This document shows positions 32,676-36,476 of a stretch of 64,000 nt of DNA, piece after piece. The notes under the pieces are model-generated. The model was not told the DNA's origin, made no database searches, and saw nothing but the letters and a program-made list of their open reading frames with translations. Each line of letters begins with the position of its first letter. Position 1 is the first letter of the stretch. The stretch spans positions 29,174 to 93,173 of the forward strand of contig JAWLBL010000032.1 of NCBI GenBank assembly GCA_041687695.1, given 5' to 3'. The position numbers were made by a program, and so were the translations under genes. Source of the stretch: Myxococcota bacterium. GTDB lineage: Bacteria; Myxococcota_A; UBA9042; PHBI01; JAWLBL01.

Positions 32676-33428
32676 ATGCTCCGCCTCCTCCTCGTCCTCT
32701 CGCTCCTGCCCCTGGCCGCCTGCGGCGACGACGCCACGTCCTCGGGCGCCGACGTCGCGCCGGACGCCCCGGCCGACGTCGCCGACGCCCACCAGGACGC
32801 CACCGAGGACTCGTCGGACGCGCCCGAGCCGCCGAGTGACGCATCCGAAGACTCGTCGGACGCGCCCGAGCCGCCGAGTGACGCATCCGGAGACTCGTCG
32901 GACGCGCCCGAGCCGCCGAGTGACACGTCCGGAGACTCGTCGGACGCGCCCGAGCCGCCGAGTGACACGTCCGGAGACTCGTCGGACGCGCCCGAGCCGC
33001 CGAGTGACGCGTCCGGAGACTCGTCGGACGCGCCCGAGCCGCCGAGTGACGCATCCGGAGACTCGTCGGACGCGCCCGAGCCGCCGAGTGACGCATCCGG
33101 AGACTCAGCCACCAGCGCCGACGCCGTCGTCGAGGCCGACGCCGACCCCGGCCCGGCCCCCATCACCACCAAGACCCCGTGCGCCAGCAACTACGACTGC
33201 AAGGCCACCTACTGCTCGGGCTGGATCTGCAACGATCTCACCAAGCTCTGCGAGAACGTCTGGGGCGCCGCCGACTGCTGCAGCGACGCCGACGAGTGCG
33301 ACGACGGCAACCCCTGCACCAAGGACACCTGCTACAAGGCGCTCGGCGCCTGCATCCACAACGCCATCGAGTGCCCGGACGGCGAGACCTGCGACCCCTG
33401 GACCGGCGCCTGCGTGTCCGCGCCTTGA
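32676..33428 (+). CDS. Lipoprotein with a Ser/Asp/Pro tandem-repeat stalk and Cys-rich C-terminal domain
   Basis: Lipobox LAAC; seven copies of DSSDAPEPPSD(A/T)S(G/E); CDDGNPCTKDTC-type Cys-rich domain. Confidence 0.85.
   Translation: MLRLLLVLSLLPLAACGDDATSSGADVAPDAPADVADAHQDATEDSSDAPEPPSDASEDSSDAPEPPSDASGDSSDAPEPPSDTSGDSSDAPEPPSDTSGDSSDAPEPPSDASGDSSDAPEPPSDASGDSSDAPEPPSDASGDSATSADAVVEADADPGPAPITTKTPCASNYDCKATYCSGWICNDLTKLCENVWGAADCCSDADECDDGNPCTKDTCYKALGACIHNAIECPDGETCDPWTGACVSAP
32808..33101 (+). repeat. Intragenic VNTR, 7 x 42 bp
   Basis: Unit GACTCGTCGGACGCGCCCGAGCCGCCGAGTGACRCRTCCGRA, near-identical copies. Confidence 0.95.
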
Positions 33429-34107: not shown

Positions 34108-34846
34108 CACCGTCCGCTCGCTCCTGTCGGCCCTGGTCGACGGAGAGCTGGCCCCCCTCGAGTCCATCGCCATCCGGCGCCACCTCAGCCAGTGCGAGGC
34201 TTGCCACGCCGAGCTGCGCGCGACCGAGCGCCTCAAGGTGGCGCTGCACGTCGCCGGCACCTCCGAGCCCTTGCCCGACGAGACCGCCGGCCGCCTCGAG
34301 GCCGCCATGCAGGCCCGCTTCGCCGCCGCGCGCGCCGAGGCCCGCGCCTCCCGCCGTTGGCTGCCCCTGGCCGCCGCCGCCGTCCTCACGGCGGGTGTCT
34401 GGGCCGCCTGGCCGGGCGAGCACGCCCGCGGCTCGGCCCCGCTCGCGATCGCTCCGGCGCCGCTGACCCTCGACGACGCGGTGCTCGCGCGCCTGGTCGC
34501 CGTCCACCAGGGCGGCCCGTCCAAGGCGGGCCCCGCCCGCGCGGCCCTGCGCGACGCGCTGGTCGCCTTCGAGCGCCTGCCCGGCAGCTTCATCACCCCC
34601 GAGGGCGAGCGCCCGCGCGTCGTGCAGGTCAGCTACGCCGACTGCGACGGCCCCGGCAACGGCTCCAGCCTGGCCGTCTTCAGCGCCGATCGCGTCCGCC
34701 TGTCCTCCAGCGTCGACGCGGCCCTGGACACCAAGGGCGTCTTCCTCGAGGTCGTAGACGGCGTCGAGGTCCGCGTCAGCCTGAGCGGCGACAAGGTCTT
34801 CGTCCTGCTCAGCGACATCGACCCCATCGACCCCTCCTCGATCTGA
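34094..34846 (+). CDS. zf-HC2 transmembrane anti-sigma factor
   Basis: CDTVRSLLSALVDGEL...HLSQCEAC (HxxxCxxC) plus a TM helix. Confidence 0.88.
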   Translation: MKPCDTVRSLLSALVDGELAPLESIAIRRHLSQCEACHAELRATERLKVALHVAGTSEPLPDETAGRLEAAMQARFAAARAEARASRRWLPLAAAAVLTAGVWAAWPGEHARGSAPLAIAPAPLTLDDAVLARLVAVHQGGPSKAGPARAALRDALVAFERLPGSFITPEGERPRVVQVSYADCDGPGNGSSLAVFSADRVRLSSSVDAALDTKGVFLEVVDGVEVRVSLSGDKVFVLLSDIDPIDPSSI

Positions 34847-35286
34847 TGCCCGATTCGCCCGAACCTCGGCTGGTCGTCGCCCCCGGCGCGGCCGAGCTCG
34901 AGGCCGCCTTCGCCCTGCGTCACCAGGTCTTCGTCGCCGAGCAGGGCGTCCCGCTCGAGCTCGAGCGCGACGACTACGATCTCACGGCGCGCCATGTCGT
35001 GCTGATGGTCGGCCCCCGGGCCGTCGCCACCGGCCGCCTGCTGACCGACCGCGCGCCCGCCAAGATCCAGCGCGTCGCGGTCGACGCCGACCACCGAGGC
35101 GCGCGCCTTGGGGCCCGCGTGATGCAGGCGCTCGAAGACCTGGCGCGTCAGGCCGGCGCCCCGGCGGTCACCCTGGCCAGCCAACTCGACGCGTGCGGCT
35201 TCTACCAGCGCCTCGGCTACGTCGCCCACGGCGAGACGTTCGAGGACGCCGGCATCGAGCACGTGCAGATGACCAAGCTGCTCTGA
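34846..35286 (+). CDS. GNAT N-acetyltransferase (ElaA/YjcF-like)
   Basis: LRHQVFVAEQGVP, RVAVDADHRGARLG and FYQRLGY...FEDAGIEHVQM. Confidence 0.92.
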   Translation: MPDSPEPRLVVAPGAAELEAAFALRHQVFVAEQGVPLELERDDYDLTARHVVLMVGPRAVATGRLLTDRAPAKIQRVAVDADHRGARLGARVMQALEDLARQAGAPAVTLASQLDACGFYQRLGYVAHGETFEDAGIEHVQMTKLL

Positions 35287-35324: not shown

Positions 35325-35550
35325 GATCGCCGGCTTCCAGCCGTCCCGCCGCCCCGCCCCTCCCAGCGCCCACGGTCCTGGGATCGCCGGCTTCCAGCCG
35401 TCCGGCCGTTCCGCCCCTCCCAGCGCCCACCGTCCTGGGATCGCCGGCTTCCAGCCGTCCCGCCGCCCCGCCCCTCCCAGCGCCCACGGTCCTGGGATCG
35501 CCGACTTCCAGCCGGCCGGCCGTCCTGGGATCGCCGGCTTCCAGCCGGCC
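35325..35550. repeat. Cluster of five REP-like palindromic units (57-bp period)
   Basis: (CCTGG)GATCGCCGGCTTCCAGCCG with the GATCG core at 35325, 35382, 35439, 35496 and 35529; hairpin CGGCT-TCC-AGCCG; near-identical spacers. Confidence 0.85.
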
Positions 35551-35609
35551 TGCCGCCCCGCCGATCGCAGCGTCCGCCTGGGACGCTCCGGCTTCCCTCG
35601 GGCCCGCGA

Positions 35610-35962
35610 TGCGACCGGCCGGCGGCTTCGCGGCAGCCTTCGCACAGGCCTCTGACGGGCCTCGTCAGACCTCGAGAGGCCTCGCGGCCGGTCTCGGCAG
35701 ACCTCGCGAGAGGGTCGAGACGGCGCCCGCCCGGTTTGCAGGGATCCGGCTCACCGGGACAGCCTTGGGGACCGATGTCGGGGTTCATCGTCCGCCTGCC
35801 GCCCTGCCGGCCTGGAAGCTCGGTGCGTGGCGCCTCTCGGGGTTCGACATGCCGGTGGGGAGTCCGGCATCGTCCCGGTGATCCGAGCTCGGGGAGGGGC
35901 TCGGCCGCCGGTTCGCGAGGTCTGCTTGTCAACCGCGGTCGGGGAGCAGCCGCGTGCGACGT
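35610..35962 (-). ncRNA. Candidate structured sRNA with repeated C-rich hairpin loops
   Basis: Three hairpins with CUCCCC loops (35934-35954, 35883-35904, 35849-35870); perfect 10-bp long-range stem 35751-35760/35872-35881; sigma-54 promoter directly upstream; no credible CDS. Ends and strand are inferred. Confidence 0.45.
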
Positions 35963-35972
35963 GTTCCAACGA

Positions 35973-35988
35973 AGCATCTTCCGTGCCA
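35973..35988 (-). promoter_or_regulatory. Candidate sigma-54 (-24/-12) promoter
   Basis: Minus strand TGGCACG-GAAG-ATGCT with canonical GG-N10-GC spacing. Confidence 0.6.
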
Positions 35989-36129
35989 ACGCCCGAGGAG
36001 GCCGGCGAAGCCCAGCGTTCATGCGGTCAGTCGCGGACACGCCTCGCATCCACCGACCCGCCGGCCTGCCGATACGGTGGCAAGTGCGCAAAAAATCCCC
36101 ACCCGCCGAGCGGAGGCTTCCCCGCCGCG

Positions 36130-36356
36130 TCGGTGGCCGTGGTCCGTGGCCGGGTCGGAGGCCGTGGGCCGTAGCCGGGTCGGTGGCCGCGCCGGTGGCC
36201 GTGCTCCGTGGCCGAGCGCCGTGGCCGGGTCGGTGGCCGTGGGCCGTGGCCGCGCCGGTGGCCGTGCTCCGTGGCCGAGCGCCGTGGCCGGGTCGGTGGC
36301 CGTGGGCCGTGGCCCGGTGGCCGTGCTCCGTGGCCGTGGTCCGTGGTCCGTGGCCG
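36130..36356. repeat. Degenerate (CCGTGG)n low-complexity tract containing a 63-bp tandem duplication
   Basis: Many GTGGCC/CCGTGG hexamers; 36183-36245 is repeated at 36246-36308. Confidence 0.85.
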
Positions 36357-36476
36357 AGTGCTCAGCCGCCGTGACCGTCGCCGCGCCGGCCACCGGACTG
36401 CACGAGCTCGCTCGTGCTCCGGCGTCGCGCAGCTCGCTGCGCGGAGGGCGGAGGTTCCAAGCTCGGGTTCAGGACT

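Follow-up and report, generated by a model that had tools for sequence, protein, structure and literature searches.

The CsrB, RsmY and RsmZ sponges present a repeated motif in hairpin loops on scaffolds of variable length, and they need GGA loops and CsrA. Other bacterial RNAs with repeated motifs or several gene copies also resemble the family described here, and we compare them as they appear in the accessible portions of the papers cited. LhrC1-5 of Listeria monocytogenes are five nearly identical copies of 111-114 nt with one activator (they are LisRK-driven) and three CU-rich sites each, and they act without Hfq and block translation (PMC4132741). The cuckoo RNAs of alphaproteobacteria are built of several hairpins whose stems vary and in which a C-rich, anti-Shine-Dalgarno-like loop (CCUCCUCCC) recurs; the hairpins are described as 2-4 adjacent units without a multiloop, under an RpoH promoter and, in Rhodobacter, with a co-transcribed upstream gene (PMC4615179). 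Two further groups are controlled through sigma-54: the homologous sRNA genes Qrr1-4 of Vibrio cholerae, all driven by one activator, whose products need Hfq (PMC2632942), and the multicopy, activator-driven CrcZ/CrcY of Pseudomonadaceae, whose repeated single-stranded motifs are A-rich and sequester Hfq-Crc (PMC6292655). Finally, Pxr of Myxococcus and its relatives is a multi-stem-loop RNA of ~108 nt with a sigma-54 promoter and paralogues in some species; it adjoins the activator gene nla19/pxrR, its host lacks hfq, and its targets are given as unconfirmed (PMC5568312, PMC5684412, PMC11928866).

The window analysed here is a whole stretch of 64,000 nt from a bacterial genome of 7.97 Mb that is 73% G+C and 99.3% complete. 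One locus in it (35610-36102), inside the gap between a convergent GNAT gene (end 35286) and ruvB (end 36477), belongs to a family that resembles the LhrC and cuckoo RNAs in its loops and Qrr, CrcZ and Pxr in its control, and that departs from each of them in a defining feature. As in the LhrC/RNAIII-like class, UCCC-type motifs are exposed in several loops (unpaired probabilities 0.98-1.0), but the copies are 265-610 nt long, 55-93% identical and sigma-54-led, they carry a rod, and no sequence relationship with LhrC was detected. Unlike the cuckoo RNAs, the family has CUCCCC loops inside a multiloop, together with a sigma-54 box and the rod. Unlike for Pxr, no activator gene was seen adjacent to its copies. 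Hfq, on which Qrr depends and which CrcZ/CrcY sequester, was not found in the host genome; no Rfam match links the family to Qrr, and its motifs are C-rich where those of CrcZ/CrcY are A-rich. The repeated loop motif is shared with the CsrB-type sponges, but the transcribed strand here is C-rich and CsrA was not found.

No catalogued family matched the window region in the Rfam scan that an earlier, first-pass annotation of this DNA had proposed. The best hit in Rfam 15 had 16.6 bits and an E of at least 4.4, below its gathering score, and best E values were 0.44 at the four paralogue loci and 1.5 at two further loci, C8 and C9 (see below). Pxr (RF01812) gave 0 matches at E <= 0.1 in the host genome, with 150 of 2,576 candidates scored. 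Neither CsrA (PF02599) nor Hfq (PF17209) had a match there, while the control found them in 3/14 and 5/14 genomes, respectively, and DUF1127 (PF06568), reportedly a partner gene of the cuckoo RNAs, also had 0 matches in the host genome. The single 6S RNA (RF00013) match, at C6:268078-268262, lies away from the family, and the RNase P and tmRNA genes are elsewhere in the genome. The literature searched, in its accessible parts, held no description of the family; most subscription papers were outside its scope, and supplementary RNA catalogues could list it. The family is uncatalogued and lineage-restricted, and consists of sigma-54-led structured RNAs.

The first-pass annotation had proposed a minus-strand, sigma-54-led non-coding RNA with exposed C-rich loops, and every motif that it named was recovered where it had been placed. 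That proposal now finds support in paralogues, covariation, a conserved upstream dyad, the presence of rpoN and ~30 strong activator matches; the RNA, the promoter and the enhancer guess stood, while one long-range stem and a CsrA-sponge alternative on the plus strand did not. The annotation contained neither the multicopy family nor the conserved 3' rod, both of which were found here. The predicted RNA spans ~265 nt (35698-35962, minus strand), its start placed from promoter spacing and its end from the homology boundary. It would begin downstream of a -24/-12 box of the form TGGCACG-N5-TGCT (35973-35988, minus strand), noted at first pass, with predicted sigma-54 activity; the consensus box is kept in all six family members, with differing spacers. 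When both strands of 35610-35962 were folded, as had been suggested, the minus strand was the better (z of -4.55, with 0 of 100 shuffles as good, versus -1.99 for the plus strand), and the promoter strand also folds better in 4 of the 5 clear copies, the exception being C7a (z of -4.6 for the other strand versus -3.3). The plus-strand CsrA sponge is rejected, both for want of a CsrA match in the genome and because promoter, folding and loop bias favour the minus strand; GGGAG has 0 occurrences on the promoter strand of the five copies, and their loops are C-rich and without GGA. ARAGORN found no gene within the window, and a terminator scan found no site at the predicted 3' end (35698), where there is no U-tail.

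From its 5' end, the predicted RNA consists of hairpin 1, a UGACA linker and a 12-bp outer helix that encloses hairpins 2 and 3 and a 124-nt rod. Hairpin 1 (35934-35954, minus strand, as are all features of the RNA) carries CUCCCC in a loop that is C-rich at the same place in 5/5 paralogues; hairpin 2 (35883-35904) has the loop CUCCCC and hairpin 3 (35849-35870) the loop ACUCCCCA. These three hairpins had been recognised at first pass, and their CUCCC words are exposed, with unpaired probabilities of 0.98, 0.98 and 1.0, respectively. Loops without CUCC occur in hairpin 3 of C7a and of C35. The linker UGACA(A/U) (35926-35931) is invariant in 5/5 paralogues and out of register in the sixth member; a pattern joining the promoter box to TGACAW finds exactly the five paralogue places in the genome and nothing in a reversed control. 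As a sigma-70 -35 element UGACA was rejected: no -10 follows it, and a promoter scan found 0 such promoters. The arms of the outer helix (35913-35924 and 35698-35709) pair with probabilities of 0.90-1.0, and homology to C7a ends at the 3' arm, the predicted 3' end. This helix is identical in C7a, and an equivalent helix of changed sequence was recognised by eye in C7b, C12 and C35. Two GAACCCCGA repeats, likewise noted earlier, were recovered at 35837-35845 and 35778-35786; the first forms the C-rich junction into the rod and is conserved less than the copy at the rod apex. A 10-bp long-range stem (35751-60/35872-81) fared differently: its complementarity is perfect as sequence, but its pairing probability in the ensemble is 0.0, and we discarded it as absent from the other four paralogues, with 3 of 10 bases changed in sequencing run X6. 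Further stems proposed within 35610-35697 lie beyond the end of homology, occur once in the genome and are outside the family.

A blastn and profile search identified four other copies in the host genome, C7a, C7b, C12 and C35 (C7:257603-257911, C7:261668-261984, C12:52980-52695 and C35:25491-25209), which with the window copy make five clear paralogues that are 55-93% identical. All five begin TGGCACG-N5-TGC, with different spacers, and none overlaps a coding base according to our own rough gene caller (5,660 genes, 86% coding). No reading frame is kept across the five. The 21-codon frame of the window copy was rejected as a small protein: its ATG is absent in C7a, it stops early in C7b, and it is shifted in C12 and C35. 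In the 1,352 nt of the five paralogues, CTCCC occurs 19 times versus 2.4 expected and GGGG once versus 14 expected, counts whose significance is overstated since the copies are related and not independent trials. Computation shows the number of copies, the conserved promoter, the lack of coding capacity, the exposure of the loops and the covariation in the rod, and we consider it very probable that this is a real functional RNA family.

A probable sixth member, likewise intergenic, lies at C8:32186 (~610 nt; the 611-nt C8 copy). It was found with a matrix that was built from the upstream dyads and run over 122 intergenic sigma-54-like boxes, among which it ranked near the top; this matrix is circular for the five sites on which it was trained, and a score of at least 14.5 was also reached by 4 of 400 random windows. 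The C8 locus has no same-strand gene downstream and comprises ~480 nt of C-rich hairpins, with 37 CCCC and 0 GGGG in the copy, followed by the same rod. Its model score (22.9 bits, E of 0.96 genome-wide) is similar to that of three chance matches, and its 5' half does not align with those of the other copies (7.8 bits). We count it as probable because box, dyad, strand, position and 50 invariant columns coincide. A separate intergenic sigma-54 box at C9:79380 (minus strand, L054) faces a convergent gene and leads pyrimidine-rich hairpins with CUCCCC/CUUCCCC loops; it has neither rod nor Rfam match and may be an unrelated C-rich small RNA.

Upstream of the promoter, an imperfect dyad with an AT-rich centre (36084-36102, minus strand), ~130 bp from the predicted start, is a candidate activator site. 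The first-pass annotation had taken it for an enhancer, a guess strengthened by the finding that the dyad keeps its position upstream of all copies (-103 to -117 relative to the box in 5/5 paralogues and -104 in the sixth member). In 4 of 5 copies the AT-richest upstream 9-mer is located at -98 to -111 relative to the box; in C7a a near-perfect palindrome at -113 takes its place. The kept position supports one shared activator for the copies, the binding itself being predicted. The host genome encodes rpoN and has 37 matches to the activator domain PF00158, 30 of them at E below 1e-28; no PF00158 match in this genome adjoins any family copy. A "divergent box" at C7:257385 was set aside as lying within a repeat and probably due to chance. 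Six other sigma-54-like boxes (C6:33327, C16:117132, C29:95889, C20:68655, C6:169393 and C7:3596) carry family-like dyads; the genes downstream of them appear by eye to encode exported lipoproteins, and these boxes may share the activator of the RNA family. Two divergent boxes with one common dyad (C22:75709 and C22:75852) sit between genes that look cytochrome-c-like and CBS-like by eye.

The most conserved part of the molecule is the 3' rod (35716-35839), 124 nt long, with internal loops and 43 pairs. In it, 94.9% of 215 cells are paired and 13 of the 43 pairs are changed on both sides; 0 of 500 shuffles came as high, and slid controls gave 34-46%. Because the five sequences that were counted had also served to derive the structure, these figures are supportive rather than proof. 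Compensatory changes in the rod include 7 G-U cells on the minus strand, and 50 columns are invariant across the six members. An invariant asymmetric internal loop is formed by CCGGYAGGGC on its 5' side (35801-35810, invariant in 6/6 except at Y) and GG(U/C)(G/C)AGC(C/U)GG on its 3' side (35746-35755). The apex loop, GA(A/CU)CCCCGAC (35778-35786), is kept in 6/6 and has an unpaired probability of 1.0. The most invariant loop is ACCCCGAC. It does not qualify as an anti-Shine-Dalgarno word, given that CGGGG shows no enrichment ahead of starts (187 versus 176).

The neighbours of the copies are ruvB, PGA_cap, TetR and malic enzyme genes and a small unassigned ORF. The next gene is convergent in 4/6 copies, the window copy included, and the unit is therefore free-standing there and not a leader. 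Two genes follow on the same strand, a methyltransferase gene after C7a and a cytochrome c gene after C35, and they are mutually unrelated. By eye, the former has a GGGAGG site inside a CCUCC/GGAGG hairpin (L016:7925-7950). A convergent GNAT-containing gene accompanies 2/6 copies (window 34845-35286; L017:4784-6673); pxrA, the gene directly downstream of Pxr, is also a GNAT gene (PMC11928866), probably a coincidence. The window and C7a copies have a common upstream flank that extends to ~36203. Around the window copy, a 57-bp tandem repeat 3' of the GNAT gene (35325-35560) has blast matches at ~64 genome loci, and the region 3' of ruvB (36116-36470) holds a GTGGCC-rich tandem repeat (~74 loci) with an adjoining palindromic element (~70 loci), a pair that also flanks C7a. 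Further away, the window encodes a lipoprotein-like ORF (32676-33428) that has acidic repeats of 13 residues and a C-terminus rich in cysteine; an ECF sigma/zinc-finger anti-sigma pair lies downstream of it.

Out of 17 sequencing runs listed, four were examined, each from a different study, and all four contained family pieces; X1 and X2 are DNA runs and X6 and X7 are RNA libraries. The substitutions listed for one X1 contig all fall upstream of 35992; its dyad arms are fully complementary, while 19 letters differ in the 171-nt piece. A further X1 record (record 1, window 35779-35813) matches the rod core only, with divergent but similar-looking flanks, and is possibly a distant member. The match in run X2 breaks off at 35992, where the box has its upstream edge, and the two loop changes leave CUCCCC intact. 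Run X6 yielded a 151-nt contig within the predicted RNA, and in this single contig the outer pair of hairpin 3 changes from A-U to G-C (at 35870 and 35849). The X7 contig, whose four listed changes equal those of C7a, departs from the reference at 35715, the base of the rod, with an A/G-rich stretch of ~25 letters on the minus-strand 3' side. The letters beyond this stretch resemble the start of an adapter. In the accessible part of a study in G+C-rich Streptomyces, PNPase is described as extending the 3' ends of RNAs with heteropolymeric tails, notably where stems are stable (PMC5872136). If the X7 stretch were such a tail, it would show an RNA, its strand and a halt of decay at the rod; this weak indication comes from a single contig at a depth of 4.6 without a matched DNA run, and the stretch could be genomic or an artefact. 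Evidence of expression consists of these two low-depth RNA-library contigs, and such libraries may hold DNA.

Searches of related genomes gave no further members. Blastn against 40 relatives returned short, weak matches only, in 11 genomes, and 0 of 13 loci scored with model R1; the same model found none in three whole relatives (150 of thousands of candidates scored in each). Among the 17 other genomes of the order, 7 contained the box plus TGACAW pattern, with 9 matches in total and a best R1 score of 7.6 bits. Scans of larger collections gave 7 viral, 5 metagenome and 7 GTDB matches, none of which extended past the seed, with patterns so strict that they would have missed the C8 member; a Myxococcales match (L046) was discarded as lying in an ORF. 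A looser rod pattern matched 13 times in 12 of 106 other genomes of the class, versus 32 times in a reversed control, and 7 times in the viral collection, and no class or viral match passed model R2. The box with two CTCCCC words matched 9 times in 7 of 400 other genomes of the phylum, with the rod in none. Since the host genome has no family-level relative in the set, the range of the RNA family is either narrow, or its members have diverged beyond these tests.

Transcription, activator, partner and effect are steps that we infer. The leading reading, for which our confidence stays tentative and somewhat short of even, is an Hfq-independent, multicopy anti-Shine-Dalgarno regulator that acts by predicted pairing. 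One enhancer-binding activator on the AT-centred dyad would induce sigma-54 transcription of all copies together. The 5' module would then present CUCCC(C) words, two to three as a rule and more of them in the long copy, each in a short loop held by a very stable stem. If they act as LhrC and RNAIII do, these loops would nucleate pairing with Shine-Dalgarno sites of the GGGAG/GGGGAG type and block 30S loading without Hfq. The 3' rod may protect the RNA from decay at its 3' end and would probably also be a docking place for a protein. We favour pairing because GGGAG marks Shine-Dalgarno zones (385 of 4,198 ATG genes versus 58 in a control zone; for GGGGAG, 102 versus 14), because the CUCCCC/GGGGAG duplex reaches -10.3 kcal/mol, compared with -12.9 for the 16S tail, and because LhrC, in the accessible account, provides a precedent (PMC4132741). 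A GGGAG site occurs in 3 of 91 leaders with CTCCCC versus 234 of 2,201, a scarcity that composition could also cause. Several observations count against pairing. The duplex with GGAGG, the commonest word, has only -5.8 kcal/mol; among the 5,660 called genes, at least 60 carry a match to the 6-nt seed, with no theme evident by eye, and we dropped the naming of targets from these 60 matches. Furthermore, stiff G+C stems would resist extension of the duplex, CUCC is missing from some loops, and the loop that varies least is not an anti-Shine-Dalgarno word.

With their 265-610 nt and variable loop number, the RNAs resemble sponges more than pairing sRNAs. A protein sponge, in which the C-rich loops titrate a C-rich-RNA-binding protein as the mirror image of CsrB/RsmZ, organised like CrcZ/CrcY and with the rod serving stability or as a second binding site, is possible though on the doubtful side taken by itself; as a predicted role we hold it to be nearly as likely as pairing. 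It would account for a motif number that varies with length (the 611-nt C8 copy with its 37 CCCC and 0 GGGG) and for loops whose common denominator is CCC(C) rather than CUCC, with no shared long seed. The host genome has five RRM-domain genes and one KhpA/B-type KH gene, CsrA and Hfq were not found in it, and CrcZ/Y set a precedent as sigma-54/CbrB-driven multi-motif sponges, according to the part of the account available (PMC6292655). However, CUCCC occurs in mRNA leaders at the expected level (172 versus 170.2) with no mRNA target code seen, a raw peak at -30 to -20 having gone after composition correction, and most 5' loops retain, ahead of CCC, the U that anti-Shine-Dalgarno pairing requires. 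The two readings need not exclude each other, because in the FopS circuit of Bacteroides, as far as its accessible description goes, paralogous pairing sRNAs and an RRM protein can form one circuit (PMC11697453). By one route or the other, the RNA most likely lowers protein synthesis.

The conservation of the rod, with its 50 invariant columns across six members and the unaligned 5' halves of C8 and the other copies, would also suit a ribonucleoprotein centred on it, in which the internal loop and apex are recognised by one enzyme or RNA polymerase and the C-rich hairpins are accessory. We consider this improbable: there is no Rfam match, the 6S, RNase P and tmRNA genes are elsewhere, and the strong CUCCC bias is left unexplained. 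It is quite improbable that the unit is a dispersed DNA repeat or non-autonomous mobile element without RNA function, even in a genome where intergenic repeats abound, where both flanks belong to families of 64-74 loci, where the window and C7a copies share their upstream flank to ~36203, and for a family that is lineage-restricted. Conservation is confined to promoter boxes and paired or loop motifs while spacers are free, and compensatory changes, the 7 minus-strand G-U cells and an extreme C-over-G strand bias argue against it; although promoter and dyad fall outside the transcript, no copy has lost them, and no terminal inverted repeat among those listed bounds the unit. The same-strand methyltransferase and cytochrome c genes after C7a and C35, and the failure to find a U-tailed terminator, would be expected of a cis-acting 5' leader or attenuator of the downstream gene, but the convergent next gene in 4/6 copies and the lack of relation between those two genes make this the reading in which we place very little belief.

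Very few regulatory RNAs have been characterised in myxobacteria-like organisms, and for Pxr no confirmed target is given in the accessible part of a recent account (PMC11928866). The family joins features that have so far been separate, namely sigma-54 multicopy control in the style of Qrr and CrcZ, C-rich loops in the style of the LhrC and cuckoo RNAs, and an uncatalogued rod; the narrow distribution seen to date lessens its weight. It offers a defined system for translation regulation in G+C-rich Gram-negatives without Hfq or CsrA. A sponge arm of an undescribed circuit, in which one sigma-54 activator drives six modular RNAs, their variable arrays of C-rich loops sequester a protein of RRM or KH type, and the invariant rod forms a new RNA domain for protein docking, is something we regard as possible and, at present, rather unlikely. 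If true, the sponge reading would be a C-rich mirror image of Csr/Rsm and an undescribed post-transcriptional circuit.
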